A stretch of 64,000 nucleotides of DNA from Mytilus edulis (lineage: Eukaryota): positions 16,120,001 to 16,184,000 of the forward strand of contig NC_092346.1 of the NCBI RefSeq assembly GCF_963676685.1. Direction: 5' to 3'. Every line of letters begins with the position of its first letter. The first letter of the stretch is position 1. A model generated the notes under the pieces. The model searched no databases and was not told the origin of the DNA. It saw nothing but the letters and a program-made list of their open reading frames with translations. The translations under genes were made by a program, and so were the position numbers. This document shows positions 10,941 to 44,858 of the stretch, piece after piece.

Positions 10941-11444
10941 CACACTTTATATCAGAGTTTTTATATATAGTGGTCTAACACGTTAACACTACAACAGTCC
11001 ATATATTAAGTCAGGGTATGTATATAGAGTGGTCTAGCTAACATGTTAACACTACAACAGTCCATATATCAAGTCAGGGTATGTATATATAGTGGTCTCA
11101 CACGTTAACACTACAACAGTCTACATGCACTTCAAATTAGGGCATTCATATATATAGTGTTTCTCACCAGTAAACACCACAACATATCAGGGTATATATG
11201 TATCCCACGTTAACACTGCAACGGGGCACACTTCTTATCAGGAAATGTATATACAGTAGTCTTTCCATTGAACAGTAGAAAATCCCCCACACTACATGAC
11301 AGGATATTTATATTCAATGGTCCAACAAAATAAACATGCTAACTAGTAATTAGTTTCTAGCATTAGTGATGCATATTATCAAATATTTCAGTATTGAATT
11401 TTTTTTTATGATATAAAATAATGATTTCTTTTGCGTTTTAACAG

Positions 11445-18636: not shown

Positions 18637-19630
18637 TTAGTCTATTTTCTGTAACACAATTACATCTAATTCACGCAAATAAAATCTACTAAAGGTAGAT
18701 TCCGAACTCCAATCTGCAGATTCTAAGATCGAATTGATAGATGCTCCTTTAAAGAATGCCCAAGTCGGACCAATAGCTTTTGTAGAATGTGCATGTATTT
18801 TCCCTTTTTTCCCTGAAGATTCAGAGTCAGAATAAGCCTGTTTAATAATTTGAACAATCCAATGTGAAATTGTCTGAGAGGTAACTGGTTTGTGAGGTTC
18901 ACATAAAGCTAAAAATAATTTCCTTCTTTGGTCCTGCTGTAATTTTTTTTCGCAACGGTTTTGTTTTATCTAAATATTGTAACAAACTTTTCCGTGGATC
19001 TAAAGAGGTATTCTCAGTGTATGTAGGTACGAAAATTTTTGCTCCAAAATGTTTCTCCCTATCCTGTTTGGCTAGGCCATGTCTTATAAACGTAATTCCT
19101 TTAGTCTGTATTCTCATGGAGCCTTCATCCGTTCTTAGTGCCTGCAGATAGCTACATCTCCTGAATGTAGTAATGGCAGTTAAGAATACAGTTTTTAAAG
19201 TCAAATCTTTTAAACTCATTTGTTCAACATTGTCAAAAGGACTATTTTCTAACATTCTTAAAACTATGTGCAAATCCCATTCAGGTAATAGTTTTGCAAC
19301 TGGAGGTCTTGTATTGAAAACACCTTTAATCAATCTAATTATTTTAGGATGTTGTCCAATTTGGAAATTATCTATAGGAGGTAATACTGTGGACAACATT
19401 GAGCGATATCCTGCAATCGTTCTGTATTGCAAACCACTATCAAATAAATATGATAAAAAATCAGCTATCTGACTTAAAGATATTTTATAGGGATCAATTT
19501 TCCTTGTACTACACCAGCTATTGAACCTTTTGAATTTTGAGCAGTAATCTTTTTGAGTCCCTTCCCGCCATGAGGCGGATAGTAACTCTCTAACCCCTTT
19601 AGAAAAGCCTTCTGTTGTAAACTTTGATAG
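18637..19630 (-). pseudogene. DIRS tyrosine recombinase (frameshifted)
   Basis: N-terminal SAM-like part (WREGTQKDY..F..WC) and LTLKTVFLTAITTFRR are in ORF 18899..20371. After a frameshift near 18950 it reads IHAHSTKAIGPTWA...ADWSSESTFSRFY, stop at 18637. Confidence 0.9.
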
Positions 19631-21625
19631 AAGCCATGCAGTCAGCTTGAAAACTTGTGGATTGGGATGATAAATCCGAGTTTTCGGTTGACATAACAAT
19701 TCTGAAATTACTGGTATCCTGATGGGAACTGCTATCAATAATTGAAGCAGCTCTGGGTACCAATGTCTCCGTGGCCATTGGGGAGCTATCAACAAAATCT
19801 GACACTGGTACTGCCTCATATATTGCAAGCCTTTTGGGATCAGACAGATTGGGGGATAAGCATAGGCGTACATTCTCTCCCATGAAATTGTCAAAGCATC
19901 CAGAGCTAAAGCTTTCTGATGTGGGATCCATGAACAAAAAATTTCTGTCTGACGATTGTCTATTGAGGCAAATAAATCTATGAGAGGAGTCCCCCAAATT
20001 TGAAATAGATTTTGAACCACAAGTTTGTTCAGAGACCATTCTGTATGTTGAATTTTGGTTCGACTGAGTTGGTCTGCTAAAATGTTCAATTTTCCAGTTA
20101 TATGAGCAGCCTTCAATCGAATATTGTTTTGAATTGCAAGATTCCATAAATCCCATGTTTGGTAGCAAAGAGTGGGCGATTTCGTCCCCCCTTGTTTGTT
20201 TAATATATATTGGACCACTGTGGTATTGTCCGATCTTATCAGAACATATTGACCTTTCAACTGATTTAGGAAGTGTTTCAGCGTTAAAAACACTGCTTCC
20301 AATTCTAGGGAATTTATATGTTTCTTGCTCTGCATTTCTGACCATTCCCCTTTAAAAATTTGATTGTTCATAAAACCCCCATACCCGGTTTTGGAAGCAT
20401 CTGTCGTTATATATGGTGACAGAAGTCTGAGCCAGTTGAAAATATTGGCCTCTCAGCGTGTTTGCTGAATTTTTCCACCAACTGAGATGTGATTTCAGAT
20501 GTGGTGTAACTGGGATCTTTATGGACAGATCTTGACAACTTGGTCTCCAAAATGAGAGGAGATGTAGTTGAATAGGTCCCATGAACAAGCGTGCATTCGG
20601 AATTAACTCTATGCAAGATGCCATTATGCCTAGTAATTGTAGGAAGTGAAATGCTGACACTGCATTCCCTGATGAAAGAATTAATATCGCCATATTCAGT
20701 TTGGCTATTCTTTCCTGAGTTGGGCAAACAAGCCCCTTGTCCAAATGAAACTGCCCCCTAGGTATATCAAGTTTTGAGTTGGTACTAGACTTGATTTTTC
20801 TCTGTTGATAAGAAAACCTAGTGACATTAGGAGATCGAGACATTTCTTCCGATCTTGATATAATTGATCCTTGTTTTGATTGACTACTAACCAGTCGTCT
20901 AGATAGACTGCTAGTCTCACATTTTGAGTTCTCAGAAACGCTGCTACTACCGAAACCATTTTTGTAAAGACTCTCGGAGCAGAAGTTGGTCCGAAACAAA
21001 GAACTTTCCACTGATAACACTGGTTCTGAACAGAAAATCTGAGAAATTTGCGATGTTTCTGAAATATTGGGATGTGTAAATAAGCATCGCTTAGATCTAG
21101 AGAAATGGCCCAGTCTCCTATTTTTACTAAATTTAATACTTTTGTGAGAGTGTCCATTTTGAAATGTATTTTCTTGAGATACCTGTTGAGGGGTCTGAGA
21201 TTTATTACTGGTCTCATTGTCCCATTCTTTTTGGGGACTAGAAAAAATGTACTGTAGAAACCTGTTGCTGCATCTTGCTGGCGAATAGGTTCTATAGCGT
21301 CTTTTTCTATAAGAGTATTTATTTCTTGGATTAAAATATCCGAGTCTTTTAAAGACACAGAGGTTTTCCGTATGCCTGTCCAAAATGGCATTTTTAGAAA
21401 CTCTAGTTTGTAACCCTCTGTTATTACTGACAAGACCCATTGATAGTCTGTTATTTTTTCCCAATTGTCCCGAAAAAATCTTAGACGACCCCCAACTGGT
21501 ATCTCGGCCTGATTCTGATAAATTATTACCTTCAACTCTGAGTCAGCTACTGTTTTTCTTTGGGATCCGAAAAGAATTCCAGTTGCCACCTGCTTTCTTT
21601 TCTTTATCTTTTTTCCCAAAGTCAT
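19625..21625 (-). pseudogene. DIRS pol: reverse transcriptase, RNase H and DAM-like methyltransferase domain (frameshifted)
   Basis: RT motifs FLVPKKNG.MRPVINLR, SLDLSDAY, FGPTSAPRVFTK and YLDDWL. RNase H motifs HINSLELEAV, SDNTTVV and NILADQLSR. MT motifs DLFAS and YAYPP. Split over three ORFs. Confidence 0.92.
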
Positions 21626-21847
21626 CAGTCTTATTGTCGTTCTGGAACTTCCTGGGAGCAGATCTCACAGAAGATTTATTATAATTAAAACCTGAGCGTT
21701 TATCAGCTGAATTAGCATTGTTATAATTAACATGAGTAGAACTATTATTAGAACTATATCTAGGAGCTTTATTTTGCCAATCTTGACGCACCTGAGTTGA
21801 TTCAAACTTTCTCTTATTATTGTTTTTCTACTCTGGTAACAGATCGT

Positions 21848-23221
21848 CTAGTTTTTACGTTGTTCTTTACGTTTCTCAAGTTTGTCTTCCAAACCTTTAC
21901 CAAATACACCCTCATTCGAAAGAGGTAAATACAACACTTTAGCCTGTATATCTTTCAAGTTATTTAAACCAGACTCAGTAGCTTCAGCTTTCCTGCGTAT
22001 CATATGGTTAAACGCCCCTGTGCGTCCTACCTGATCAAGAGACTTTGTCGGAATGGCAAACAAGTCCTTCACCATTTGACAAGTTTCATCACTTACATTT
22101 TCATTTTCAACCCTCTCTAATAAGGTTCCTAATGTTTGTTGCATATACAACACTGATATAATACTCATACGTGAAGCCACCTGCCCTTGATAGGCTAGAT
22201 TTTCTATCTGTTTTAAAGGTTGAGTAACCAATTGCTTGTGTTTGTCCCATGACTTAACACTATTTGTACCATGAACAGTTCTTATCATTTCATCTAATAA
22301 ATCATCCAAACTGGGTACTTGCAAAAAGCTTTTAGATTTATCATTAACCGGAAAACAACTACGGTATTCATCTTTAAAAGCAGTAAGTTTCTCTGGATTT
22401 TTAGTTCTCCAGGAACGTTCTAGAATTCTAACCTGCGCTTCATCAATGATCAAGCCACCTGAATTATCAGACGATTCTGAAGGAATATCTTCCTTGTAAA
22501 GCTTAGACAATAAATTTAAATTATCTGACTGCTTGTCTACAGTTTTATTGTTATTATTATCAATGTTACTTGTTTGTCTCTGATTTGACTGACTTTCAAC
22601 ATTGTTATTAGTTATAGTAGGTTGAGTTTGTAGATATTGGCTAAATCTTTCAACATTTCTAGATTTAATGCCAGCCTGAGAATAAACACTAACAGGACTA
22701 CCAAGGCCACGAGAATATTCATCCTCTGATGAACATAGACCAAGTAAATCAGCCTTTTCACGACTGTCTATATGAAGAGAAATTTCTGACCTATTGTCAA
22801 AATCAACATTTCTAATAATTTTAGGACTTCCCAAGTCCTCATCAAGATTTGCATTCAAAGAAATTACCGGTCTACGCTCCCCTGTACTTGGGACGTTATC
22901 CGAACTTTGTTCTTTCTGCGTGGCTAAACCACCAGATTGAGAAATGTCTGCAACAGTCGAACTACCTGTAGTAGCACATGACTTGTTCAAAACTGCAAAT
23001 AACATATCTATTTTCTTATCAAACCTGTCTTCCATACTGGTTAACTTATTCTCAAGTTCAGCCGTCTTCGACACGCGTTTCTTTTTCTTTGAAGAAGAGT
23101 CTTTTGTTGTCCTCGCCATTTTTTCCACGAGAAAATCACCCGTTGGTGTTTCACCTGCACTATCTGAATCTAAATTTTCAGCATTTGCGTCAGCAAGTGA
23201 GTGTCTATACTCTTCATCCAT
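21848..23221 (-). CDS. DIRS ORF1 (gag-like), 457 aa; C-terminus frameshifted into 21543..21791
   Basis: First long ORF after the ITR. Ends with the DIRS-gag-like LPLSNEGVFG motif followed by a basic tail. Confidence 0.8.
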   Translation of the reverse strand: MDEEYRHSLADANAENLDSDSAGETPTGDFLVEKMARTTKDSSSKKKKRVSKTAELENKLTSMEDRFDKKIDMLFAVLNKSCATTGSSTVADISQSGGLATQKEQSSDNVPSTGERRPVISLNANLDEDLGSPKIIRNVDFDNRSEISLHIDSREKADLLGLCSSEDEYSRGLGSPVSVYSQAGIKSRNVERFSQYLQTQPTITNNNVESQSNQRQTSNIDNNNNKTVDKQSDNLNLLSKLYKEDIPSESSDNSGGLIIDEAQVRILERSWRTKNPEKLTAFKDEYRSCFPVNDKSKSFLQVPSLDDLLDEMIRTVHGTNSVKSWDKHKQLVTQPLKQIENLAYQGQVASRMSIISVLYMQQTLGTLLERVENENVSDETCQMVKDLFAIPTKSLDQVGRTGAFNHMIRRKAEATESGLNNLKDIQAKVLYLPLSNEGVFGKGLEDKLEKRKEQRKN

Positions 23222-26200
23222 CGTCCAATATGAACGGACGATAATATCAAACGTACATAAATAAAAATTTCAACGACGAGACTATACTAGAAAGTCTCAA
23301 AGTGAGAACGTCTTATTTTGTTGCCGCCGAAAGATAAACTGAGGAGGCCTTCACCCGGATGATCAATGTTAGATAGATGTTTGAAATCATCCAGGTGTTG
23401 CGAGTTATGAGAACGTTGTAAGGGAAATAATCCTTATGTATATTCCTTGACTGGTAAGTAAAAATATATATGATATATGATATAAAATCAGTGCACATGA
23501 CATGTTTGTTAACAATCGAATACTTTTTTATACGAACTTACCTTGGTGCCATTGTCACAACTTGATTTATTTCACTTTATTTCACTTGGCTGGGCGGAAT
23601 AATCGAATATGCGAAATTCATGAAATTATAGAGGATTTTGTATTTCGTAATTACCATTTTAAATATATGGAACATTATCAACGTGTAGAACGCTAGATGT
23701 GGGGTGTCGGCTATGTTTTACATGGTGGTGCGGTTATAAAACGGAGAAAAACGATAAAGGCAAGTTAAAGTATCAACATTTCTTGTTTGGGAATTGTTAG
23801 TACAAAATAATGTATTGCACCGAACCATAATCTATTTCCAGCATACAGAATTAGACATTTTCATTGGTCTGTTTTCTCAAACATTCTTCCTAGTTTTCCG
23901 TGTTGCAGATTTTTAGGCTTCATATGCAGGTTTTCAGGTAAACAACTACTTTTGACAATATGGTTTATAGAGAAATAAATTCATATCATGGAATGGTTTT
24001 AGATGGAAGTAACGCACAATTGATCAACTGACAGGTAATCGATCACAAATATATACGAGTACAACAAACGAACGTACACAATTTGGAGAACTTTTAAGGA
24101 ACTTTTAAGGAACGTAAACTAATTATGCACATTGGGGGCATGCTAAAAATTGTTATATCATTACATTAAATGCCTGTTGTTTGGATTATGGCACCTATCA
24201 ATGCAATAGCTCGTCCCTAATTGGCATCTGATTGCTGTGTTGTCAAAATCTGTGAACCGTATGTTTAGCTGATTTAATTCTTATGACAAAGATTTTAATA
24301 AAGTTTGCTCATTCTTGTTATCTGCTGGACAACACAAAAGAGTTTATAATTAACATTACAATATATAATACTTTAAAATTTTTACGAATCTGGGAATATT
24401 TAGGTAAATTTACGCGGGGTCAAATTTTCGCGTGTCCTTAGCTACAGCGAACAAAGCGAAAATTAAAAACACGCGAAAAAAACCCGATATACGGTAATAG
24501 ATAGAAATGTCAAAAAATTGATACATAAATAAAGACAATAGTAGGATACCGTTGTTCAAAAGTCATGAAACGATTGAGAGAAAACAAATCACGGTTACAA
24601 ACTAAAACCGAGAGAAACATATCAACTATAACAGGAAAACAACAAAACAACAGAACATGTGCTGCAAAAATGAAACTACAATGAAACATACATAGAAACG
24701 AACTATAAGATAACAACTGCCATATTCCTGACTTGGTACAGGACATTTTAAGAAGAAAAAAACGTGGGTACAACGTCAACATTGTGTTTTAATCTTAATC
24801 ACTATCAAAACAAACACATATGTAACAAAGAAACACAAAAAGGGTATACAGACAAAGCACAGACGCAAAAATAAAAGACGTTTATGTTGCTCGATTCCAA
24901 ACATTGTGAAGCATGAATTAAAAACCAATTGAAAATCCTTGAACTAAACAGTGGCGAAAAAAGCTGTGCCATATAACACTTTAGTTATCTATGCCTAAAT
25001 TTAAAGTCCTTAGTGTTCAATATAATATGATATTTAGTAAAAGTTCAGAAAATGTAAGTCACAATGATATTAAATGTCACTTAAAAAATGCTGTCTACTT
25101 GACTGGTGATAACTTCGGAACACCTCTTTCGATGATGTTTAGGTATAAATTAGATACAGACCAAAACCATTATAAAACTCTCAAATTTATCTTTAACGTC
25201 TAAGTTTTATAGTTTATTGTAAAACTGTGTCATATTTTTTCAAGGATTGCTTGGCCATTCCTATTTCGAGTTTTGTATCAGTTGACACTGAATACTTACA
25301 CAGTTATAGTTGAAGGGGCATTTGTTGTTAAATTCGTGCTCATCGATTTTAATAAGATTTTTATATTTGATTTATAACTTTATATCCGAATTATAAAAAA
25401 GTATAAATTAAACAATTTACATTGGACGAACTTGATAACATATATCAACATTTCGTATGTAATTTACTATTAGCATGTCGTAATGTTCTATTTGTTAATT
25501 TGTGTATTTCTCTGTCCTGAATGTTCTTCCGTTTATTTGTATATGTAGTCCTGTGATGTAATTTTGTCATTTTAGTGTTATATTTAACATTGCCATAAAT
25601 ACTGGAGGTTTAGCTAGCCACACAACCAGATTCAACCGAGCATTTTTCCTTAACATGTCCTGTTCCAAGTCAGGAAAAGGCAATTGCTATCTTATGATTC
25701 CTTTCCGCTTATATTTGATGTGTTTCCCTCAGTTTTAGTTTGTAACCCTGATTTGTTTTCTCTCATCGATTTATGACTTTATAACAGCGGTATACTATTG
25801 TTGCGTTTATTTTGTTCAACCATCGAGGTGACCTCCGAAGATTGCAGACAGTCATTTTACCCTATATAAACATAAATAGAGATATAAATAGAAAGCGAAC
25901 TCGTGTAACTGAATTTTTCTAACTCCGTTTGATTTCATACTATAGGTTAAACGTACATATTAATCATCGCGTATGAGAATAAGTTTTCTGGGATCGAATC
26001 AGTGAAATAATTGATTTATCCATGTTTATATTTTCATTGCTGACATTTTTTACGCTTAATAAATGAACACGTCTAATTCATGCGTAAACATCTGTAGCTA
26101 AGGGGTTAAATTGAAGGTCACATGCATACGGTTTCAATGACGTCAAATTATTTCTTATATCGTATTGTGACAAAAATTTAACCAAACTGTCTGCTTATAG

Positions 26201-27264: not shown

Positions 27265-27600
27265 GTCTAAACACCAACCCAACAATGTTAGATCTATAAA
27301 TTTGCTTTCGCAAATGTTTTGTTTTTCCCTCGCCGGGATTCGAACCCATGCTACTGAGATATCGTGACACCAAATCGCCTGCACTGTAACCGGCGGGCTA
27401 GACCACACGACCACCTGGGCTTCAGAAAATGAAGCTTTTGGTGGCCGGGTGTTACCTTTCCACGTCAGTTTTAATCTAGCGTCGTACTACAGTACATGAT
27501 ATATAAGGCATGAAGCTGTTATTTTTTACAGATCAGCTAAATCATCTATAGTAAAGGATCCTAGAAATTAATGTAAGATACAGTCACAGACATAATTATA
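27265..27600 (-). mobile_element. Truncated copy of the ~440-bp Pol III-box (tRNA-like) repeat unit
   Basis: Its reverse complement matches 30291-30627. It is cut just after TTTAGAC. Confidence 0.85.
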
Positions 27601-27608
27601 ACTATATA

Positions 27609-29014
27609 TGTAACACTCAAAAACCTGTCCTTCCCCCCAAACGTGTCCAAATCACGTCACTGAACTGTAAAACTTGTCTTGTTGCAAAAGGGCGCCAAAG
27701 CGTGTCATTTGTATAAACGCCCAAACGTATCCAATCCCCCAAACGTGTCCATATCAAGCGTAATTTGGTTATTGATATTTCATTAACGTATACTAATTTT
27801 ACCATTTCATTAAAATTAAAGATAAGCTACGTTAGTACTTTTTTAAACCGGCAGTATAAACTAAGTAAAAGTGGGGGCGACATTCCGGCTATGTCGTATG
27901 TAAATTGTAAGCAAATTAGTTAAATTGTATTATTACCTAATAAAGAGTATTGTACGGTTATCTGGTAAACTTTCCTTTCTCTGCGCATTAAAACATTTCT
28001 CTCTAAATATGCATGAAATACTGGCAACGGAACATTGCGCAATCAACAGTCTAAAATTAATTTAAACAGTAGAACTGCAAAAAACATTAAAACTTGTATG
28101 TTCTCTCTAAATATGCATGAAATACTTGCAACTGAACAATACGCAATCATTAGTTTAAAGTTAATTATTACAGTACAATTGTTAAAACATGAAAACTGGC
28201 AAAACTATTGTTCGCTCTTAATATGCACAAAGTACTTGCAACTGAACAATACGTAATCAACAGTCTAAAGTTTATTTATACAGTACAAATTAAATTTGCA
28301 ATTAAAACCGGGGTAAATCACATAACAATCATATTTATAAAAAAGAATCTATAAAACCAATGCATGACATATTTGGCACTGGACGTTATGTCTCTTTATC
28401 GTGTGTTTTTAGTGATGCTGGAAACCTTCAATTTATTAAAAAAAAAACAGATAACTAATTTATGATTTGATGAGCTTTTATAATACACACAAATTCAAAT
28501 GGAGAACCGTTGATAAAGTGAAAAAATGCTGCTGAAAGCCTGACGTAAAATAATTGGATAAATATAAAAGGCATCATCGGAGTTTATAAGTACAAATTAA
28601 TTTACAAAGTTAACGATTAATGCAACGCTAGAATTTTTCGTATGTTCGCTCTAAATGAGTATGAAATACTTGCAACTGGGCAATAAGCAATTTCAGTCAA
28701 AAGTTAAATCACAATTACAGATTAAATTTGGAATTATGTTAATCATTTAAAACCGGCATTGCACTAACTAATGCTAATAAATGACAACTTCATCACCTGT
28801 GTGCCCCATAATAAAATTGCCGTAAACGTTATCAGCGATTTCAATTTAGGAGATACATGTATTAGCGCTAACAGATGTGAGACGTGCTGGCGTGTTATAA
28901 TGGACACGTTATGGCGAATAACAATATTATCGGACACGTTTGGGGGTTTTGAAATCGGACACGTTTGGGGAGAATAGACACGTTTGGGGGAAGGACACGT
29001 TCGGGAGTGTTACA
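27609..29014. mobile_element. Non-autonomous TIR element in (TA)n with subterminal CCCCAAACGTGTCC repeats
   Basis: TGTAACACTC ... GAGTGTTACA termini flanked by TA, mirrored subterminal repeats, and an internal ~100-bp repeat (starts ~27997, 28100, 28210, 28643). Confidence 0.75.
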
Positions 29015-29025
29015 TATATATATAT

Positions 29026-29644
29026 GGTTCGAATCCCGGCGAGGGAAGAACAAACAATTTGCGAAAGCAAACAGATCTAACATTGTTGGGTTAATGTTTA
29101 GACGAGTTGTATATACATAATGTACACAGCCATGTATCACCATCACTGCTGGTGATCCGATGGATAAATCTGTTGTAAAGTTGTCACTGGCTCAGACGTA
29201 CTTATAAATATAATTATTTTCTGTGACTGTATCTTACATTAATTTTTAGGATCTTTTTCTATAGATAATTTAGCTGATCTGTAAGAATAACATCTTCTTG
29301 CCTTATATATCATGTACTGTAGTGCGACGCTAGATTAAATCTGACGTGGAAATGTAACACCCGGTCACCGAAAGCTTCATTTTTTTTATGAAGCCCAGGT
29401 GGTCGTGTGGTCTAGCGGGACGGCTACAGTGCAGGCGATTTGGTGTCACGATATCTCAGTAGCATGTGTTCGAATCCCAGCGAGGGAAGAACCAAAAATT
29501 TGCGAAAGCAAATTTACAGATCTAACATTGTTGGGTTGATGTTTAGACGAGTTGCATATACATAATGTACACAGCATGTATCACCATCACTGCTGGTAAT
29601 CCAATGGATAAATCTGTTGTAGAGTTGTCACTGGCTCAGACGTA

Positions 29645-29647
<3 letters not shown>
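29026..29647 (+). mobile_element. 1.4-mer head-to-tail tandem of the ~440-bp Pol III-box unit, flanked by (TA)n
   Basis: B-box GTTCGAATCCC at 29027 and 29468 gives a period of 441. Tail-to-head junction CAGACGTACTTATAAATATAATTAT at ~29200. Confidence 0.85.

Positions 29648-29694
<47 letters not shown>
29648..29694. repeat. (TA)n microsatellite (others at 30162-30185, 30727-30758, 35282-35299)
   Basis: Directly visible. Confidence 0.95.
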
Positions 29695-29696
<2 letters not shown>

Positions 29697-30724
29697 TACG
29701 TCTGAGTCAGTGACAACCCTACAACATATGTATCCATCGGATCGCCATCAATGATGGTGATACATGGCTGTGTACATAATGTATATAGTACGCCGCTAGA
29801 TTAAAACTGCATGGAAAGGTAACACATGCCCACCGAAAGCTCTTTTTTTGAGAGCCCAGGTGGTCGTGTGGTCTAGCGGGACGGCTGCAGTGCAGGCGAT
29901 TTGGTGTCACGATATCACAGTAGCATGGGTTCGAATCCCGGCGAGGGAAGAACCAAAAATTTGCGAAAGCAAATTTACAGATCTAACATTGTTGGGTTGA
30001 TGTTTAGACGAGTTATATATGAGGGAAGAACCAAAAATTTGCGAAAGCAAATTTACAGATCTAACATTGTTGGGTTGATGTTTAGACGAGTTGTAGAACC
30101 AAAAATTTGCGAAAGCAAATTTACAGATCTAACATTGTTGGGTTGATGTTTAGACGAGTTGTATATATATATATATATATATATAACTCTTCTAAACATC
30201 AACCCAACAATGTTAGATCTGTAAATTTGCTTTCGCAAATTTTTGGTTCTTCCCTCGCCTACAAATTAATGTAAGATACAGTCACAGAAAATAATTATAT
30301 TTCTGTGACTGTATCTTACATTAATTTGTAGAATCCTTTACTATAGATAATTTAGCTGATCTGTATCAATAACATCTTCATGCCTTATATATCATGTACT
30401 GTAGTACGCCGCTAGATTAAAACTGACGTGGAAAGGTAACACATGCCCACCGAAAGCTCTTTTTTTTGAGAGCCCAGGTGGTCGTGTGGTCTAGCGGGAC
30501 GGCTGCAGTGCAGGCGATTTGGTGTCACGATATCACAGTAGCATGGGTTCGAATCCCGGCGAGGGAAGAACCAAAAATTTGCGAAAGCAAATTTACAGAT
30601 CTAACATTGTTGGGTTGATGTTTAGACGAGTTGTATATACATTATGTACACAGCCATGTATCACCATCATTGATGGCGATCCGATGGATACATCTGTTGT
30701 AGGGTTGTCACTGACTCAGACGTA

Positions 30725-30727
<3 letters not shown>
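29695..30727 (+). mobile_element. Rearranged array of the same unit: inverted tail, partial copy, two re-primed sub-repeats, inverted pieces and a full copy (30291-30727)
   Basis: 29695-29787 is an inverted tail; 29786-30013 is a + copy; 30021-30093 and 30094-30161 are repeats; 30186-30296 is inverted; 30291-30727 is the full unit. Confidence 0.85.
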
Positions 30728-30760
<33 letters not shown>

Positions 30761-30924
30761 GTCTAAAAATAGCAACAATCAACATTCAATCTAATTAAGC
30801 GTGGATCAGTTTGTGAAAATAAACTGATACAGTTACTGAATTAAAATTATATAAATGTCTAAGAATATAACTAAAACACACTAATTGATACATTAAAAAG
30901 TTCTATTAGATGTTAAATAGAAAT

Positions 30925-30963
30925 ACGCAATATTTCGCTAAACAAATTAGCTTCATCAGGCGT
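30925..30963 (-). ncRNA. Minimal type I hammerhead ribozyme (PLE-associated)
   Basis: Reverse-complement copy of 35172-35210. Confidence 0.75.
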
Positions 30964-31179
30964 GTGCATCTCTCAAGGTGAAATCGGATGCATGACAGAA
31001 AAATATTTTTGTAGCTTAATCTATACAAGATTTGAGGGATGGGTGTAACATATTAATTCGGTCATAAAATATGTTTGTAGCTACAACTACATGAAGTTGG
31101 AATAAAAGTTTAACACATTTATAGATGTTCGATTAATTGTATGAATTTTTATAAATTAATTTGTATGATTTCAAGATAA

Positions 31180-32843
31180 CTATGGTTTTGATTTGCTTTG
31201 AAATCTTTTTTCGTCTCTCTCATTGAGTCCATCAGGTTCAAGAGTTCGTAACTGGTGCATCCAAAATCTCTCTCTTTTTTGTCTTCCTTGTGTATCCCAA
31301 TTTTGATTTTTCTCAATGATTTGAAATGTGATGTTTTCAAAATCATGTCCTGCTCTTAAAAGGTGTCTTGTAATTGGGCAGTTCCTTTCTTTTGTATAAA
31401 ATGACCGATGGTTATTTAGTCGGATGTTAAATGGGGTTTCTGTTTCACCAACATATTGTAATTTGCAAGTTCCACACGTTAGAACATAAATGCAATTTTG
31501 CGTTTTGCAATTTGATGTTATAAATATGTTGTAATTTTTCTTTGTGACTGTGCTGATGAACTGGGTTTCTATATTTGCGACTTTGCAGCACTTACAATTG
31601 CCCCTTCCGCATTGTTTATAACCTCCGATTGTTGATATCTCCCGTTTAGATACTTTGGATGATACTAGAATATCTTTGAGGTTTTTTGGTCTGCGGTAAG
31701 CCATAACGGGAGGTGATGGAAAAATCTCGCTTAAGGAAGGATCATTTTCAATAAGACGCCAGTGTTTGTGGACAATTGATGAAATATTTGTCAGATGAGG
31801 ATGAAAGCTAACCACAAACGGGATTTTATTTGTCTGGGCCGTCTTTTCTTTGTATTCAAGTAGGTTTGTTCGTTCTTTTTCGTTTGCTTTTCCGAAAGCT
31901 TCTGAAATACTTTTGTTCTTATAACCTCTTGATTTGAGTTGCTGTCTGAGTTGCCCTAAACGATGGTTTAACTTTGATTCCGATGAAAAAATCCGTTTTA
32001 ACCTGATGGCTTGGCTGTACGGAATGCTCCGGGAGCAGTGTTTCGGGTGACAACTCTTCGGAGAGAGAAATTGGTGTTTATCAGTTTTTTTGGTGTGAAG
32101 GTCTGTTGTCATGACTCCGTTTTCTAAAGTTATGGTGGTGTCGAGAAACGCAATTTTCTCATTTGAAACTTCAGATGTGAACTTGATCGATTGATGAAAG
32201 TTGTTACAGAAATCGAGAAATTCTTGCAGGCGTTCTGCAGTTTCGTTCCATTTGATGTCGATGTCATCAATATAACGGAGCCAAGACAAGGGTTTGTATG
32301 GTACATTCGAAAGGATGCGTTCTTCGAGACTCCCCATGAAAATGTTGGCAAAAGAAGGTGCCATTTTGGTTCCCATACTGGTACCGTCAACCTGCAAGTA
32401 GTGCTGGTCGTTGAATACAAAATTGTTGTTTTCAAGCACTAGTCTCAGCAACTGAACCAGACAGTCTGTTGGGGGATGTTTATCCTTACGATTGTTCCAT
32501 ACCTGTTCACAAGCGACTATTCCTTCATTTTTGGGAATATTTGTGTACAAAGAAAACACATCCATCGATACCAAAATTGTGTTGTTTGGTAAGGGGTTTA
32601 ATGAATCCATTTTCTTCAAATAATCTGTAGTATCTTGAATGTAAGATGGCATTGTTCTAACATGTGGTCTGAGATGGTAATCCACGAATTCAGATATTTT
32701 TTCGGTTGGATGGCCATTTGCAGATACTATCGGTCTTCCCGGAATCCCTTCTTTATGGAGTTTTGGGAGCAAGTAAAATCGACCGGCTGTGCAGGTTTCA
32801 TCAGGTCGTAGATAGTCGTACGTGTCGTCATCAATATGTTTTT
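31180..32843 (-). CDS. Penelope-like RT + GIY-YIG endonuclease, N-terminally truncated
   Basis: LPKLHK, GRPIVS, GTSMG, RYIDDI, IPYSQAIR, CGRGNCKCC and CIYVLTCGTCKLQYVGET motifs. ORF 31180..32772. Confidence 0.92.
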
Positions 32844-34955
32844 CGCCTAAAAGAACATTTTAATAGGCAACACAAAAAAACCTTACAAGAAGCCGGAATG
32901 AATGATTCGGAATATGAGAGTGATAAAGAGGACAAGTGCATCCCAAGATTTAAAAAGAAAAGCGAATGGAATCCACCAAGGAGTAAGAACGACAATTTAG
33001 AATCCTTTATATCATCAATTAAAACTGAAGTAAAATCATCAGTCAGTGGCAAACGTTTAAGGAATCTCTCTGAACAAGAAAGCCAGGCCATAAATAATTT
33101 AAAAAGCCGTGATGATATTGTTATTAAACAAGCAGACAAAGGAAGTGCAGTTGTAGTGATCAACAAAACCGACTACATTGAAGAAGGGAATCGTCAGCTT
33201 ATAAATACAAAATTTTACAAACATTTAGAAAGTGATCCTACAAAAGAAATAAGTAAACAAATTAATGAGGTCCTTTCAGACATGAACAGCAAAAAACATA
33301 TTGATGACGACACGTACGACTATCTACGACCTGATGAAACCTGCACAGCCGGTCGATTTTACTTGCTCCCAAAACTCCATAAAGAAGGGATTCCGGGAAG
33401 ACCGATAGTATCTGCAAATGGCCATCCAACCGAAAAAATATCTGAATTCGTGGATTACCATCTCAGACCACATGTTAGAACAATGCCATCTTACATTCAA
33501 GATACTACAGATTATTTGAAGAAAATGGATTCATTAAACCCCTTACCAAACAACACAATTTTGGTATCGATGGATGTGTCTTCTTTGTACACAAATATTC
33601 CCAAAAATGAAGGAATAGTCGCTTGTGAACAGGTATGGAACAATCGTAAGGATAAACATCCCCCAACAGACTGTCTGGTTCAGTTGCTGAGACTAGTGCT
33701 TGAAAACAACAATTTTGTATTCAACGACCAGCACTACTTGCGGGTTGACGGTACCAGTATGGGAACCAAAATGGCACCTTCTTTTGCCAACATTTTCATG
33801 GGGAGTCTCGAAGAACGCATCCTTTCGAATGTACCATACAAACCCTTGTCTTGGCTCCGTTATATTGATGACATCGACATCAAATGGAACGAAACTGCAG
33901 AACGCCTGCAAGAATTTCTCGATTTCTGTAACAACTTTCATCAATCGATCAAGTTCACATCTGAAGTTTCAAATGAGAAAATTGCGTTTCTCGACACCAC
34001 CATAACTTTAGAAAACGGAGTCATGACAACAGACCTTCACACCAAAAAAACTGATAAACACCAATTTCTCTCTCCGAAGAGTTGTCACCCGAAACACTGC
34101 TCCCGGAGCATTCCATACAGCCAAGCCATCAGGTTAAAATGGATTCGTTCATCGGAATCAAAGTTAAACCATCGTTTAGGGCAACTCAGACAGCAACTCA
34201 AATCAAGAGGTTATAAGAACAAAAGTATTTCAGAAGCTTTCGGAAAAGCAAACGAAAAAGAACGAACAAACCTACTTGAATACAAAGAAAAGACGGCCCA
34301 GACAAATAAAATCCCGTTTGTGGTTAGCTTTCATCCTCATCTGACAAATATTTCATCAATTGTCCACAAACACTGGCGTCTTATTGAAAATGATCCTTCC
34401 TTAAGCGAGATTTTTCCATCACCTCCCGTTATGGCTTACCGCAGACCAAAAAACCTCAAAGATATTCTAGTATCATCCAAAGTATCTAAACGGGAGATAT
34501 CAACAATCGGAGGTTATAAACAATGCGGAAGGGGCAATTGTAAGTGCTGCAAAGTCGCCAATATAGAAACCCAGTTCATCAGCACAGTCACAAAGAAAAA
34601 TTACAACATATTTATAACATCAAATTGCAAAACGCAAAATTGCATTTATGTTCTAACGTGTGGAACTTGCAAATTACAATATGTTGGTGAAACAGAAACC
34701 CCATTTAACATCCGACTAAATAACCATCGGTCATTTTATACAAAAGAAAGGAACTGCCCAATTACAAGACACCTCTTAAGAGCAGGACATGATTTTGAAA
34801 ACATCACATTTCAAATCATTGAGAAAAATCAAAATTGGGATACACAAGGAAGACAAAAAAGAGAGAGATTTTGGATGCACCAGTTACGAACTCTTGAACC
34901 TGATGGACTCAATGAGAGAGACGAAAAAAGATTTCAAAGCAAATCAAAACCATAG
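32844..34955 (+). CDS. Penelope-like RT + GIY-YIG endonuclease (uninterrupted, native N-terminus missing)
   Basis: RLKEHF, IVIKQADKGSAVVV, LPKLHK, RYIDDI, the Cys-rich linker and GIY-YIG-type CIY..YVGET..R..NH..E..GLN. The first 46 aa of ORF 32706..34955 come from the inverted arm. Confidence 0.93.
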   Translation, partial: RLKEHFNRQHKKTLQEAGMNDSEYESDKEDKCIPRFKKKSEWNPPRSKNDNLESFISSIKTEVKSSVSGKRLRNLSEQESQAINNLKSRDDIVIKQADKGSAVVVINKTDYIEEGNRQLINTKFYKHLESDPTKEISKQINEVLSDMNSKKHIDDDTYDYLRPDETCTAGRFYLLPKLHKEGIPGRPIVSANGHPTEKISEFVDYHLRPHVRTMPSYIQDTTDYLKKMDSLNPLPNNTILVSMDVSSLYTNIPKNEGIVACEQVWNNRKDKHPPTDCLVQLLRLVLENNNFVFNDQHYLRVDGTSMGTKMAPSFANIFMGSLEERILSNVPYKPLSWLRYIDDIDIKWNETAERLQEFLDFCNNFHQSIKFTSEVSNEKIAFLDTTITLENGVMTTDLHTKKTDKHQFLSPKSCHPKHCSRSIPYSQAIRLKWIRSSESKLNHRLGQLRQQLKSRGYKNKSISEAFGKANEKERTNLLEYKEKTAQTNKIPFVVSFHPHLTNISSIVHKHWRLIENDPSLSEIFPSPPVMAYRRPKNLKDILVSSKVSKREISTIGGYKQCGRGNCKCCKVANIETQFISTVTKKNYNIFITSNCKTQNCIYVLTCGTCKLQYVGETETPFNIRLNNHRSFYTKERNCPITRHLLRAGHDFENITFQIIEKNQNWDTQGRQKRERFWMHQLRTLEPDGLNERDEKRFQSKSKP

Positions 34956-35171
34956 TTATCTTGAAATCATACAAATTAATTTATAAAAATTCATACAATT
35001 AATCGAACATCTATAAATGTGTTAAACTTTTATTCCAACTTCATGTAGTTGTAGCTACAAACATATTTTATGACCGAATTAATATGTTACACCCATCCCT
35101 CAAATCTTGTATAGATTAAGCTACAAAAATATTTTTCTGTCATGCATCCGATTTCACCTTGAGAGATGCAC

Positions 35172-35210
35172 ACGCCTGATGAAGCTAATTTGTTTAGCGA
35201 AATATTGCGT
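35172..35210 (+). ncRNA. Minimal type I hammerhead ribozyme (PLE-associated)
   Basis: ACGC-CTGATGA-A-GCTAA(TTTGT)TTAGC-GAAA-TA-TT-GCGT. Stem I is ACGC/GCGT, stem II is GCTAA/TTAGC, and stem III is a minimal palindrome (AATATT). Confidence 0.75.
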
Positions 35211-36054
35211 ATTTCTATTTAACATCTAATAGAACTTTTTAATGTATCAATTAGTGTGTTTTAGTTATATTCTTAGACATTTATATATATATATATATAA
35301 GTAAACAATCGTGATCATTGATAATATATATGCACACGTACCGAAAAATTGTGTTAAAGCATGCGGAATAATATCTCAAGAAGGTTTTGCGACAATGCCG
35401 GCAAGGACCGATAACTCTGTAATTGTTTTTGCGGGGAAATATGAATGCCTACTCATGTCCAATCTTTTAGAAAATCGAATTTTTACAGAAGAGTGTCCAC
35501 CATGCACTTGCACTGCAATATTATTAGAAAAGTAGAACAGAATGATTTACAAATTGATGAACATATTATATACATGTTACTGTTTTATTAATATAATATA
35601 TAACAACAAACTTGTGAAACTAATTTGTATCACTACAATATAATAGTTATTATGGTGAAGTTGAATTTCCTGGCATTGATTCATCATCCACGCACGAACT
35701 TGTCTCAGAAAAAAATATATCTGTGTACATTAACCTCAGTTTCAGGTATTGAGTTGATTTTTTTTCAGTGACAAGTGCCTTTGACCATCCACAAGAACTT
35801 GCGGTCATTCAAAATTTACTACAATAAAAACAATATTCCAATACCATATTACTGTGTTTTTTTTATTGGTAAACTTTTAAAATGAGTTTTGTATTAAGAA
35901 TTGATAGGTTTATACGCATCGCATCTGAATTTTTTGGTTCGATAAACAACATCATTGTAAAGTTGGGATGTTCTATTACGTTGTAATCAATTTTCTACAT
36001 GTGCTGTATAATTGTGACACAATGTTGAGTATTCTGTCTTATAAATGTTTCAGA

Positions 36055-36239
36055 ATGAAGACAATGTACTCTAAAGTAGCAGTTGGTCTACTTATCATTG
36101 TAGTGTATACTGATGTGGTATTACTTTGTCCAAACAACTGTTCCTGTTACAAACTCCAAGATGGTCGTCACCGTATAGATTGCAACAATCAAGGATTTAC
36201 TTCAATTCCAAGGAACTTTCCAAATGACTCATCCATAAT
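36055..36239 (+). CDS. LRR protein gene, first coding exon: signal peptide + LRRNT
   Basis: MKTMYSKVAVGLLIIVVYTDVVLLCPNNCSCYKLQDGRHRIDCNNQGFTSIPRNFPNDSSI with the CPxxCxC..C pattern. Phase-2 GT donor at 36240. Confidence 0.9.
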
Positions 36240-37034
36240 GTAATATGTTTTCTTAGTCTTTCACCCTTAGCTATTATTTAAAAAGTATTTTAACACACAA
36301 AAGAATGATGATCAAAATATGCTTTTTCTGTAAAAAACAAAAGTCAATAAAAATAAAACAAACAAAAACAATTGTTTGTAGAAAGATATACAACACCATA
36401 TCATATGCCAAACAGGTGTCATCCAAAGTCTTTACAGAGAAGACATCTCAAGAGTTAACATAGAAGAAATGGATTTAAACGTGGTAATTACTATTCAAAT
36501 GATCCAAAATAATGCGGAGGACAAATTTGAAAATTAGTGTCAATCACCTGTTTTTAAAATAGTTCTGACCCTTAGAAATATCAATTATATAGACATTTAC
36601 ATTGTAAGCGCTCTCAAAGGAACATTCCATGTTTATAGGAGTGTTATGAAATTCAGAAATTCATGTCGATCACTCAGTAAAATAATTGAATTATGATCAC
36701 TAAAATTGAAAATATCGGAAGTAAATATAATGTGGGAGGACAATTGTTTTAGAATATTAGCAACTTTACCAAAAAAATATTTTTGCTAAGGAACATACAC
36801 GAACTGCAAAAATGTAAATGTAAAAAATGTTAGTACTTTACTTGTGGTAGCAAGTGTAACATTGGTTGAGAGAACCAAAATTAGGATCAAGATATACAAT
36901 TAAACAAATATTTAATTTCAATTGTTCATTTGTTCATTTTATCCGTGTAATTGTAATAATATTAAATTAGTAAATCTGAAAATAAAGATTGTGATTAATG
37001 TTAATTTTAAAAAATTTAACCCATATGATCTAAT

Positions 37035-40001: not shown

Positions 40002-42219
40002 GTAAGTATTTTTCATTTCTAAACGTTTTCAGTATAACCGGTATTCTATATTAGCAACAGGCATGTCCCTATTGAATATGATTGTTTAAAAAAAAGGAAA
40101 CAGTCCAGAATAATTATCTTTGTCTTAAAAAATGAATGTTTTCACAGCTGATTATTGGATGAAATATTCTGAAAGTAATTTTATATTATAAAGTTTTATT
40201 AAAAAGGGACAAACGATACCAAAGAGACAATCACACTCATAAATCGAAAGTAAACTGACAATTACGTGGCTAAAAAAGTTAAAGACCAACAGACAAACCG
40301 GCAAACAGACAAACAGACAAACAAATCAAGAACAATAAAAAAAAAAACCCAACATGGAACACTACAGACTGAGCTAAAAAACTAAAAATGGGGTTGATCT
40401 CATATGTCCGGAAATATAAGCAGATTCGACTCCATATTTTGAGGTCATTATGTTTCTTGTGTTAGTACGGACCCGATAATATGTCTTATTCGATGATATT
40501 CCATTTCGGTCAACCGAATTCGTAAAATTAACCAAAAAATGATTTCAAATTCACCACTTGGAACTCTCTGCCAAGGAAATCTTGATATGAAAGTCAAGCC
40601 CTGAAATGTCGTATCAACTTAGAGAGGGGGAGGGTGTGTGAGAAATGTTTTTGAACACGAAAGAAGTTTTCTTGTTATACCAAACATATGTTTTCCGGAA
40701 TATGGTTACTCTAAATGAACTCTCAATTAGTTTAATTATCTAATTACAGTTCATACTTACCCGTTTTGCAATTGCTGTATCACCCCTTGCATCTATTCCT
40801 CTAGTCGCGTCTTATCATGTGTGTTGGTAAAGTTTTGTGATCCTAATAAGGCTGTTTGGTGGTATTTTTTTGTTTGTTTGTAAGATTAACATTCACCATT
40901 TTTTTGGTTTGAATTAGTGTTGTAGTTTTAATACGTATAAGTTGTATCGGGCCTATTCGAAGTTTCTATCAGAAGTGCCGTATTTTTTGTTATTTCATTC
41001 TTTACAGAAAATGAATCAATTTGGTCGAAAAAAATAGGGGGTCACGGACCATTTCAGCTCAAAATTCACTTTTAAACATGTATGTAAAAAGGACCATTTT
41101 TCAATTAAATGATAGAGAAAATAAAGGTGTTGACATATTTTTATCGGAATATCAAAAAAACGTTCTACGGCACTTGGTCCAAAACTGAAATATAAAAAAA
41201 ACGGAAATATATAGCTTCAAAGAGTGAGAAAATAAAAAAACATTGGTCACCGATAAGGCAAAAAAAAAAGATTTTGCCTTAAAACCCAAATTTTGGCGGG
41301 AAATGGGGAAAATGTGTGAAATGTCATTTTGAGCCTTTAAAAGATACACATAAGAACGAAAATAATCTTTTAGTGACATAAATACAACGATTTAACATTT
41401 TATATCAATCAAAATATTTAAAAAAAATAGTTTCGACAAATACTTTTCGTGTGCATTGTAATTCATGCGTTAAATTATGCGCAGTCGAATAGTTCCGATC
41501 CACCTTAAGTAACTTTAAAATTTGCGCAGACATAATACTGATATTGTTTATTGGTCAATCATCAACTAGATTTAATTAACGATATTGATATTAATTTTGG
41601 ATTGAAGAATAACACATGTCATTTTGCATCCAGCGTTTAGGAAAGTATATGTATTAAGTCCAGGACTTTTCTGAAAAAAAATTGTACGAGTTACTAGAGT
41701 TGTATTATAACTGTTGATCGTTTTGCAATTTTTGAATGTAAATGAAAAATTCGTGTATGAAGTAGCGCAATTTATATTTGTGTATATGACGGTTTGATTT
41801 TTATAACCATTTATCTGTCCAAATATCCTTTAGTTATATCAGCCTCAGACACTTGTTTTGTCAAAGAAAATGATAAATCGAAAATCTTATATAAATATTC
41901 ATTTACGTTTCGATAATGAAGTTTATCGACATGTTGTATTTATTTGTATGCATCAATTGTGCCCATTTTAACTGCGCATAGCAGACTTGTTTCTATTCTG
42001 TTATTAATCACAAATTATTGCAATTGAAAACCCGTCTAAATTCCAATGCACATAAAAAAAAACCACTTACACCAAATAATAAAATGACCAGAGGTTATAG
42101 AATTATAACACACAAACAATGAGACGATTAATGAACAGCTGCGACTATATAAATGCATCAGGAAATCAATATTGCAATAAGTCATATAATACAGACAAAC
42201 TATCGTTTATTCATTACAG

Positions 42220-42291
42220 AGACTTGTACACAAATCGGATAACTATATTAGAACCAGGAACTTTTAAAGACTTACCACGGCTAGCTTCGAT
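42220..42291 (+). CDS. LRR exon 3 (DLYTNRITILEPGTFKDLPRLAS)
   Basis: 72 bp, cag/gtatgt, phase 2-2. Confidence 0.9.
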
Positions 42292-44858
42292 GTATGTATA
42301 CATTTTTTTAAAACATGTTATTTACTTGTTATCCACATATTTGTTTTTACACAATAACATATTTTTAATAAAGCTGTTTTACTATCTCTATTCTCTCATT
42401 CTACTTACAGTCAATTTATTTCAAATAAAAAACAAACAAAATATTCAGCCAAAAATATTTGGTGAGCGTTTTTGGGTTCACGAGTTGTATTTTCTTTAAG
42501 AAAAAAAATGTTTTTTTTCTCTTCTGGAAACTATATTAATTTAGTATTCCTTTTACAAGGTGTTTGATATACTCAATATCTTATTCCATTAACAGTGTCT
42601 TATTTTACATCAAAATCAAAAATAAATTCCGTAAAAAATATTTGGTGACCGCTCAGCGTTGTAGGGTTTGCGAACTGCTTTTCTTTTTTTAAAAGATCGC
42701 AACTTCTTATTTATTAATTTTTCATTATTGTTTTCTTTTTTAAAGGAGTTTAGACTATTGTACACTGTTTATTTTAAGTTTTTACTGACAAGTGTTGTTA
42801 TAATCAGTTCAATAGTTTTAGAAAAATATAGTATAATAAAAAAACGACATTTATAGCATATCGGAAAAAAATCTAAATCAAGCTGCATCTCGATAGAATA
42901 TCGTGTGGACCAATAAAAGATCAAATATTTAATAAATGTTTTGTTGGAACTAACATTTATTCATAAGTGACAGAAATGTGATAATAGATGAGTAATTGAA
43001 GTCTTCAAGCTAAATGAACTGTCCATATAAAAGCTTACTGACTAAATGTTGGTTTATATACGTCTTCAGGGTGAACTTAAATTTACGCCGCGTTTTGGAG
43101 TGAGACACAAAAAGCTTCTCTTCAAATGAACAATGTCTTGAAAATGCTTTGAAAAAGGATTTCATTAACTTAAAACTGTATAGTTTCGAAATTATTGCTG
43201 AGGGAATTTTTTTTTATCATAGCAAAATATAAGAAATAAGGAGAAAAATTCAGAAAAAGCTCCCCAACTCACTGAGTGTGGCTTTCTCTGTGTATTTATA
43301 TGAATGGTTCAGCCTATTTCAAAGCAATTTTCTCATAAAATGTGTTTTGAGACTAAATCCGTTCTAAATATTTCATTTTTGTAATATTTAACTGAAACAA
43401 CATAAAATTTGACAAACAAGAGTACACCCAAGACCAAAGGTTTATGAACAGCTTTTCCTGTGTACGTTTGACAACGAAACCCATTTAAGGTGTTATACAT
43501 ATAGTATCCCCTATAAGTATTTGTTATTTTTGCACTCTTCAAAAAAATGTGTGAAATTTATCTTTGTTTTAAATACTTGGCATGAATAAAGTTTCATCTT
43601 GTCCAGTACTTTAGAAAAAAAATCACATAATGTATATAAGAAAATAACCATCGCAGAAAGTTAACCAATCAAATGTCCACCCTTTTTCCTTCCTGTGTAC
43701 AAGCTTAAGCTACCATGATATCTCAAGTTTCAAAAATTTGTATAGAAATACCAAATAAAAAAAAAATGGTGTTTTGAAAAACTCAAGATATATTTCTATA
43801 ATACAGATTAATGCAATGAAATGCAGGGAAAATTTCATACAACTGTGAAATTCAAAGGTGACGTACCATGATTAGGGGTTATTTCACATATATGATGTTC
43901 TATTTTAGTTTTATCGAAAAATGCCTTCAAAAATGTGCATGTCAAAATATAATGTTCATAATCTTCAAAGACATAACAAAATATAAAGAACATCTAGTTA
44001 CTTTCCAAGAGAAAAGTAATTTTCATCTTAAAATTTACAAGTAATTCTCTTATATATAGTTAGAGATAAAGAACCGAATTTGTTCTCTTTTGCATTTTTT
44101 TTGCTTCTGAAATTTTCTAACTTAAGCATTTGGTCCCATTTTTTGAAATCCTATTGGTTTCTCTTCATATCAATTTAGTCGGAAAATGTAAATGTCTAAG
44201 GATGCTTTTTTTAAATTGATACCATAAAAATGCTGAATTCCGAGGAAAATTCATAAAGGAAAGTCCTTAATTAAATGCCAAAATTAAAAGTTCAAACAAT
44301 CGATCGAATGGATAACAACTATCATATTCCTGACTTGCCACAGACATTTTCTTATGTTGAACATTGTGAATAAAACCTGGTTGTATAGCTAGTTAAACCT
44401 CTCACTTGTATGCCAGTTGTATCACATTCCATTATATTGAAAACAATTTGTGAACAGAACAAACAGACATAATACATTGTAATAGGTCGTATAAATCGTA
44501 AAAATGTTAAAAATAGGGGTACAGCAGTCAACATTGTGTTATAATCTTAATCACTATAAAAGAAACATAAAAGAAACACATTCAGGCATATAGACAAAGC
44601 ACATTAGCAAAAATTAAAAACAAGAATACAAAACAAATTAACAAATCACACTTACCCAATGACGGGATGTGTTATAAGTGCAAAACCACGTCATGTGCAT
44701 CAAAGAAACACAAAAGGGCAATAAGACAAAGCACATCAGCAAAACATAAGAACAAACATACAAAAGGTTTATAACAACACAAGGACGAGGTGTATAAGTA
44801 CCGGGCCACTTCATATGTATCAAAGAAACAAAAAAAGGCATATAGACAAAGCACTTAA

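Follow-up and report, generated by a model that had tools for sequence, protein, structure and literature searches.

Among described systems, the schistosome repeats SM-alpha and Sj-alpha, in the account given in parts of PMC6765202 and PMC8490949, resemble the 442-bp unit analysed here in being short tandem repeats that combine an internal promoter of Pol III type with a type I hammerhead, and, as we propose for the mussel unit, in having each unit transcribed from the one upstream. SM-alpha measures 335 bp against 442 bp here, and the mussel unit differs from it in a minimal, palindromic hammerhead with weak stems, in the dominance of a form whose core position A9 has become U (A9U), in its targeting of (TA)n and in two fixed 3' ends. 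A Pol III-type promoter joined to a hammerhead is described in those sources for schistosomes; the mussel family would add an independent second one. Parts of PMC7229834 portray metazoan non-LTR retrozymes, those of Mytilus galloprovincialis among them, as short tandem repeats with a GC content below 45%, highly expressed as self-paired RNA, in all of which our unit is alike. The same source proposes Penelope-like elements as retrozyme helpers and reports that the ribozyme is blocked in some mussel circles. The 442-bp unit is longer than the reported retrozymes (350-390 bp), lies slightly above the 170-400 nt range and, unlike them as far as that account goes, has A and B boxes; its circle, moreover, is one that we infer. 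Its arrays consist of tandem dimers to multimers with GC below 45%; a canonical hammerhead in each unit was not found, the A9U form being dominant and the canonical form confined to older and to minor lineages. With a dominant form that departs from the required core and a circle that is deduced, the unit is not classed here as a strict retrozyme.

Elements linked to reverse transcriptases provide further comparisons. The minimal hammerheads of Penelope-like elements, predicted in the relevant part of PMC4209133 to act weakly and as dimers, likewise have GAAA, a two-base palindromic bridge, UH and a short stem I; their stem II has 7-8 pairs versus 2 in the unit, which also differs from them in having no extra base after A9 and in its non-coding tandem context. 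Non-autonomous Penelope elements of the MRC1 type from Chlamys (PMC8557442, in part) are similar in their head-to-tail multicopies, microsatellite targets and inverted pieces, but they share 3' sequence with their helper, whereas the unit shares a short motif and the two-end spacing only. Helenus TRIMs of bivalves (PMC10886601, in part) are small non-autonomous elements with tRNA-derived A and B boxes that can form arrays; unlike them as there described, the unit lacks paired LTRs, a primer-binding site and a fixed 5' end, and its polar ends lie in (TA)n. Literature searches returned no description of the 442-bp family, which may match a repeat in Repbase, in Dfam or in the supplement of PMC7229834.

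In the window (the whole 64,000-nt stretch of DNA that was analysed), the family and its insertion ends are laid out as follows.

27265 to 27599, minus strand: older partial copy, unit 4-340, 91-92% identity
29026 to 30286, no strand assigned: more tandem, partial and inverted pieces of the family (29026-29678; 29663-29787, inverted; 29763-30170; 30175-30269, inverted)
30287 to 30729, plus strand: one full 442-bp unit of the youngest (A9U) subfamily, 98-99% identical to units of head-to-tail arrays genome-wide
30620 to 30642, plus strand: first fixed 3' end, with an AGAC...TATA motif; putative start of reverse transcription (61 of 111 ends)
30713 to 30729, plus strand: second fixed 3' end, with an AGAC...TATA motif (21 of 111 ends)
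30727 to 30758, no strand assigned: (TA)16 target microsatellite

The preliminary description had bounded the unit at 30380 to 30727; a DNA search of the genome moved its start to 30287 and set its length at 442 bp. In the 1.37 Gb searched (14 large contigs), the window unit as DNA query gave 837 candidate places, of which 40 were scored and were mostly head-to-tail arrays, and an older copy as query gave 2,595. Exact patterns, which yield lower bounds, counted at least 1,282 young A9U copies and at least 303 copies with a canonical core, more than 1,500 counted altogether. The loci fetched for closer analysis were picked by pattern and DNA searches and are thus biased to copies that keep the middle of the unit; the longest array among them runs head-to-tail for 8.2 units. 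Among the 111 insertions that span 0.3 unit or more and whose 3' end can be seen, 61 stop at unit position 349-363 and 21 at 438-442, two sites ~90 nt apart, and (TA)3 or longer abuts 67 of the 82 that end at either site. The 5' ends are variable and scattered over the unit, and 29 of the 111 insertions hold at least two hammerhead sites. Ends with this polarity match target-primed reverse transcription that starts at internal sites, on a template longer than one unit. The 442-bp repeat is very probably a (TA)n-targeted, tandem, non-autonomous retroelement.

Units of the same array are more alike than units of different arrays (2.48 differences within versus 3.89 between, for 53 units in 14 young arrays; 2 of 5000 permutations), and in several young arrays one private variant is present in every unit. 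Such likeness fits the repeated reading of one circle; it also fits later duplication or a homogeneous source array. One 7.8-unit array (C11:71198209-71201672, L026/L027) carries two private variants that recur every three units, as might follow from a trimeric template or from the duplication of three units at once. A separate subfamily (L043-L049) consists of single truncated copies (unit 86-355, 77-80% identity) whose core is broken (CUCAGGA in most) and whose B box has decayed; it seems to have spread on its own, with 1.5% internal divergence in 5 copies.

The middle of the window unit holds a ribozyme motif, a promoter-like region and a predicted fold that overlaps both.

30385 to 30392, plus strand: TATA-like motif inside the RNA, without a PSE-like partner (read depth, comparison by eye)
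30395 to 30512, plus strand: rod-like MFE fold, predicted to bury the hammerhead; helices 30395-405/30502-512, 30409-419/30487-497 and 30440-451/30477-488, hairpin 30456-473
30419 to 30463, plus strand: minimal type I hammerhead motif, predicted cut after 30459 (descriptor, copy alignment); stem I AAAA/UUUU, CUGACGU at 30423-30429 (A9 to U), stem II GG/CC, GAAA at 30452-30455, palindrome AGCU
30460 to 30467, plus strand: T8 run, which supplies the 3' side of hammerhead stem I, forms the loop of the inner hairpin and may act as a Pol III terminator
30472 to 30566, plus strand: tRNA-Leu-like region with A box at 30479-30489 and B box at 30546-30556, no cloverleaf (tRNA alignment)
30575 to 30594, plus strand: hairpin with a GAAA tetraloop (MFE fold; no recurrent covariation)

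The type I core reads C3 U4 G5 A6 N7 G8 A9, G12 A13 A14 A15, U16 H17, with A9 required, and natural hammerheads with a two-pair stem II exist (PMC3088659, in part). The window copy departs from this core at position 9, where it has U: it reads CUGACGU where older copies in the alignment read CUGACGA. The earlier statement that no canonical hammerhead core is present is thus literally true of the window copy, but it passed over a variant that is one base away. Across the family the order is AAAA, CUGACG(A/U), GG...CC, GAAA, GC, U, C, UUUU, with the palindrome AGCU as stem III, and the motif directly precedes the tRNA-Leu-like A/B-box region. As exact matches, the canonical core CUGANGA...GAAA occurs in the 303 copies counted above, against 0 for a reversed-pattern control; of 5000 shuffles, 1 satisfies the whole descriptor (3 if any base is allowed at position 9), which is found in 31 of 116 distinct sampled copies. 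By group, it is complete in 22 of 39 old canonical copies (5.1% from their own majority), in 8 of 14 young canonical copies (2.6%) and in 0 of 36 A9U copies (0.9%). Since the A9U group is the least diverged, the loss of A9 is recent and lies in the most successful lineage: the young pattern has 1,282 A9U copies versus 8 canonical ones. Old copies that fit the descriptor do so in a non-palindromic register.

Stem I comprises four A-U pairs, stem II two pairs, and stem III would form in a dimer only, via AGCU; stems I and II are marginal. No covariation was seen within the hammerhead stems of the sampled copies, and the excess invariance of the core is not significant (11 of 22 versus 70 of 209 positions, p 0.097, in 45 copies that were not fetched by pattern). 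The MFE prefers the rod, in which bases of stems II and III are paired elsewhere, and the rod is predicted to be a resting, non-cutting fold that hides the ribozyme. Loop II could pair nine of its ten bases with the stem I bulge, an arrangement that might support the active fold. We consider measurable cleavage by the A9U motif doubtful.

Other ribozyme assignments were tried. Permuted hammerheads (the non-circularly permuted orders SGC, CSG and GCS of the blocks C, G and S, with three stems; PMC10085705, in part) were rejected, as the contiguous type I order alone fits in 4 units, on both strands and as circles. Rfam gave no ribozyme or tRNA match in the window or in 4 loci with canonical copies, its microRNA-like matches being AT palindromes below cut-off, and twister, hairpin and HDV-like ribozymes were set aside informally on short motif counts. 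A genome search with Rfam Hammerhead_1 recovers another repeat family, not the 442-bp unit: 0 of 15 such loci share anything with the unit beyond a TA-rich 20-mer, and no B box lies near their motif. That other family is probably the published mussel one.

A and B boxes of tRNA origin, as expected of SINEs and SM-alpha-like repeats, were recovered in three copies, whose alignments to genomic tRNA-Leu(AAG) reach a modest score of 57-59 that exceeds all 300 shuffles (maxima 45-51); the tRNA-Met control scored 37-50 against shuffle maxima of 49-56. The tRNA-like part starts 12 nt past the T run, and its A box, TGGTCGTGTGG, aligns to 30479-30489, upstream of the 30487-30497 first proposed. The earlier view that the sequence does not form a tRNA cloverleaf was borne out (ARAGORN 0; no Rfam match at this place). 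A U6-type promoter had also been suggested upstream; the TATA motif in question, 87 nt upstream of the tRNA-like part, lies within the RNA at full read depth and has no PSE-like neighbour. Comparison by eye with the upstream regions of 1 U6 and 5 U2 genes, a weak test, found no PSE-like element at U6 spacing before the TATA; a TGAAA-containing element precedes the U6 and 3 of the 5 U2 genes and is absent at the TATA motif. At one locus (L018) the TATA motif of the 5' junction serves as microhomology with (TA)n. At the loci L031-L042 and L073-L078, the U6 genes stand in a 733-bp tandem array and the U2 genes in ~1,180-bp arrays, with two upstream promoter types among the U2 loci. Runs of T8 and T4 should stop Pol III. 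Initiation by Pol III at the internal A and B boxes is the simplest promoter arrangement and must involve reading through both the T4 and the T8; no clear transcription start step was seen in the reads, and we put transcription by Pol III at about an even chance.

All five motifs quoted in the preliminary description lie where it had placed them, and its two long helices, T-run hairpin and GAAA hairpin are all in the MFE fold of 30380-30727 (-118.4 kcal/mol, z -3.54, a stability that none of 100 shuffles reached). The rod it proposed stands for ~30395-30512 and does not extend to the whole unit, which when folded as a circle is branched, with 67% of bases paired (z -5.2 for the plus strand and -3.2 for the minus strand, 60 shuffles each). 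The change between GCTCTT/GAGAGC and GCTTCA/TGAAGC in the inner hairpin is real; its three compensated positions are not independent events, being subfamily differences inherited by many copies, and amount to few events. Selection on structure is weakly supported: in an alignment of 90 copies (89 of the 116 distinct ones plus the window copy, with 27 near-identical young ones omitted), double changes are real but thin. In this alignment 92% of the cells pair. Changes on both sides occur at 8 of 45 pairs, a tally that 281 of 500 shuffles also attain; the number of double-change cells (77) and the covariation score exceed all shuffles, yet they come from three pairs only, 30404:30503 and two in the T-run hairpin, which set subfamilies apart. 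One pair of the inner helix is mismatched in the youngest lineage. A metagenome pattern scan for distant relatives gave five hits, four unrelated and one a 99% identical copy, and because it yielded no distant relative no cross-species covariation was obtainable.

Expression was assessed in three stranded RNA-seq runs of one study, ~6% of each being scanned, from an organism (organism B) that shares 0.96 of words and is labelled apart from the likely source of the DNA. Unit reads numbered 4,696, 5,977 and 3,844, or 539, 724 and 524 per million, with sense depth ~10-100 times antisense. As first mates map to the minus strand, the RNA is likely the plus strand, the same strand as the hammerhead and the A and B boxes. 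Read depth is unbroken over all 442 nt, including the unit junction and the predicted cut; junction-spanning reads number 679, 901 and 480, against 46, 80 and 62 that continue into (TA)n at the first end, and the share of reads that leave the element into flanks is 0.08-0.09. An old-subfamily allele at unit 248 occurs in 22 of 1200 sense reads (2%) versus 25 of 137 antisense reads (18%; p 5e-14) and ~51% of DNA contig depth. The scarcity of old alleles in sense reads, compared with antisense reads and DNA, identifies the sense RNA as something that the young lineage makes specifically; neither DNA carry-over nor passive read-through accounts for it. Most expressed molecules are without A9, which is intact in 11%, 15% and 15% of sense reads, and a change at unit 163 that breaks the second stem II pair is found in 22-34% of them. 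The preliminary suggestion of a structured, possibly self-processing RNA thus holds up as to structure, expression and a possible route of processing, and its exclusion of a hammerhead does not. One family thereby offers a natural canonical-to-A9U series with both forms expressed, which bears on whether circles and spread need cleavage.

The form of this RNA is harder to read, since the junction reads fit circle and multimer alike. No pile-up of read ends was found at the predicted cut, and nowhere does 1/5 of the molecules start or end. The stretch from the T run to the tRNA-like start is covered at 55-75% of neighbouring depth. In a gut metatranscriptome the unit appears as one closed 471-nt contig at depth 171, and in a marine one as a 427-nt contig (depth 4) that extends from the T run round to 15 nt short of it; the latter, a single weak record, fits a cut monomer. 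We lean towards an RNA that is mainly circular rather than a linear multimer. Two further signals were set aside: a depth dip at unit 150-183 steps down 20-30 nt before the predicted site and may reflect structure or variant clipping, and an enrichment of intact A9 in RNA over DNA was considered but not established, because copies with the unit-163 variant escape the exact patterns and alleles are not phased in DNA contigs. Environmental DNA and RNA sets of marine, gut and coral origin also contain the unit (L136; runs X15-X20), once as a closed contig, and in environmental metatranscriptomes its RNA could pass as a viroid-like agent.

Directly beyond the (TA)16 of the window lies a candidate for the helper.

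30760 to 35287, no strand assigned: young Penelope-like element as an inverted pair (30848-32846, minus; 33289-35287, plus) with an 88-nt tail at 30760-30848; candidate helper (protein domains, genome search)
35172 to 35210, plus strand: minimal hammerhead in the Penelope-like 3' untranslated part, with a canonical core and the palindrome AUAU

This element has intact reverse transcriptase and C-terminal GIY-YIG domains and a C-x4-C-x2-C linker; such a linker is associated in a part of PMC8557442 with microsatellite targeting; as a point against this helper, the same source has Naiad elements likewise target (TA)n. The element has 927 candidate places in the genome, and 40 matches that are 100% identical over 319 nt (2 of them from the window itself) show that it is young. 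Its 3' ends lie directly in (TA)n at 10 of 20 loci, continue into the tail at 9 and differ at 1; the two ends are 88 nt apart versus ~90 nt in the 442-bp unit, and all four ends carry AGAC a few bases ahead of TATA. Two internal starts that define a tail are described as unique to Penelope-like elements in the part of PMC11167929 that deals with them. The 442-bp unit combines two internal 3' ends with 5' truncation, tandem and inverted pieces and a microsatellite target, as Penelope mobilisation would leave them. Three of 20 Penelope-like loci have a unit within 1.5 kb, a proximity that a shared target would explain as well, and 3' sequence common to the unit and the window's Penelope-like element amounts to 10-11-mers only (E of at least 0.19). 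On balance a Penelope-type helper probably copies the 442-bp unit. For the helper of animal retrozymes, PMC7229834, in the part that treats it, proposes Penelope-like elements without a direct signature; here a two-start tail pattern stands beside a young candidate helper, which makes the link testable in vitro.

Our preferred reading, with a probability of roughly 0.55, is that the window unit belongs to a non-autonomous retroelement which couples a tRNA-derived region to a minimal hammerhead and is likely copied from a circle into (TA)n by a Penelope-like reverse transcriptase. The A and B boxes of one unit would drive Pol III into the next, reading through the T runs; in the multimer, pairing of AGCU palindromes would join two hammerheads for a cut after 30459, a slow one where the copy is A9U; the 442-nt monomer would be sealed by an RNA ligase of the host, and the product would refold into the rod, hiding the ribozyme and keeping the circle intact. 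A Penelope-like protein would nick (TA)n and start cDNA at one of the two internal sites, and the reverse transcriptase would roll round the template to leave 5'-truncated arrays of 1-8 units. A bolder version, which we hold only tentatively, sees a tRNA-headed circle among the animal's more abundant RNAs, a best lineage that dropped A9 yet circularises, and Penelope-tail ends that name the class of the copying enzyme; circles would there form either by a ribozyme-free route or through an A9U hammerhead that is rescued by dimerisation and by loop II kissing the stem I bulge over nine pairs.

The same element and helper could also operate with the hammerhead as a dead relic and an uncut linear multimer from the arrays as template, with no circle at all. 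This would account for A9U in 1,282 young copies versus 8 canonical ones of that pattern and for the even depth through the cut site, and it has a precedent in an anole element whose hammerhead mutants insert unimpaired and whose uncut RNA is the main substrate (PMC11167929, in part). Private variants present in all units of an array, however, fit one unit reread, the closed single contigs in environmental RNA point the same way, and reads that cross into flanks are few (0.08-0.09); we judge the relic unlikely. Circles might instead arise without the ribozyme: host tRNA-processing nucleases and ligase could work on the tRNA-like part or the rod, or Pol III could terminate in the T run and its product be ligated. 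Here the T run only 12 nt ahead of the tRNA-like part, the predominance of A9U in RNA and the one depth-4 contig that begins at the T run are set against the lack of a cloverleaf and the pairing of the D-arm region within the rod; a terminate-and-ligate product would, moreover, lack the bases between T run and tRNA-like start, which are still at 55-75% depth, and such routes appear quite improbable.

Far less can be said for a DNA-level satellite or Helitron-like repeat that spreads by unequal crossing-over or rolling-circle DNA replication and is passively transcribed. It would read the helices as DNA inverted repeats repaired by template switching, and it would fit the tandem arrays, their internal homogeneity, the one period-3 pattern on C11, the thin covariation and the closeness of the rod's 5' arm to the tRNA-like D-arm region in inverted form. 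It is very unlikely: fixed 3' and variable 5' ends with inverted pieces, a hammerhead motif on the transcribed strand beyond chance, and RNA with strong strand bias and skewed alleles all tell against the DNA-level account, which end polarity and allele skew largely refute. The TATA motif, stable fold and high expression might suggest a host gene for a non-coding RNA that uses a U6-type external promoter and represents a new class of ribozyme, the preliminary description taken at its strongest. Such a gene is hardly credible with a TATA motif that lies within the RNA and has no PSE-like motif at U6 spacing, with copies dispersed and truncated, and with a known hammerhead to account for the motif.

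Elsewhere in the window, short inverted repeats rich in GGACACGTTTGGGG at 27603-27760 and 28925-29020 flank ~1.3 kb and adjoin unit copies; they are possibly the ends of a DNA transposon. Overlapping ORFs at 18637-23269 (minus strand) resemble what we take to be a DIRS-type retrotransposon (gag-like, RT, RNase H, tyrosine recombinase), and 36040-36243 and 42101-42499 (plus strand) are presumably exon-like pieces of a leucine-rich-repeat protein. Tandem repeats of 33, 17, 59, 94-98 and 496 bp occupy parts of the window at 138-2606, 8700-11300, 46400-48500 and 54737-55761.
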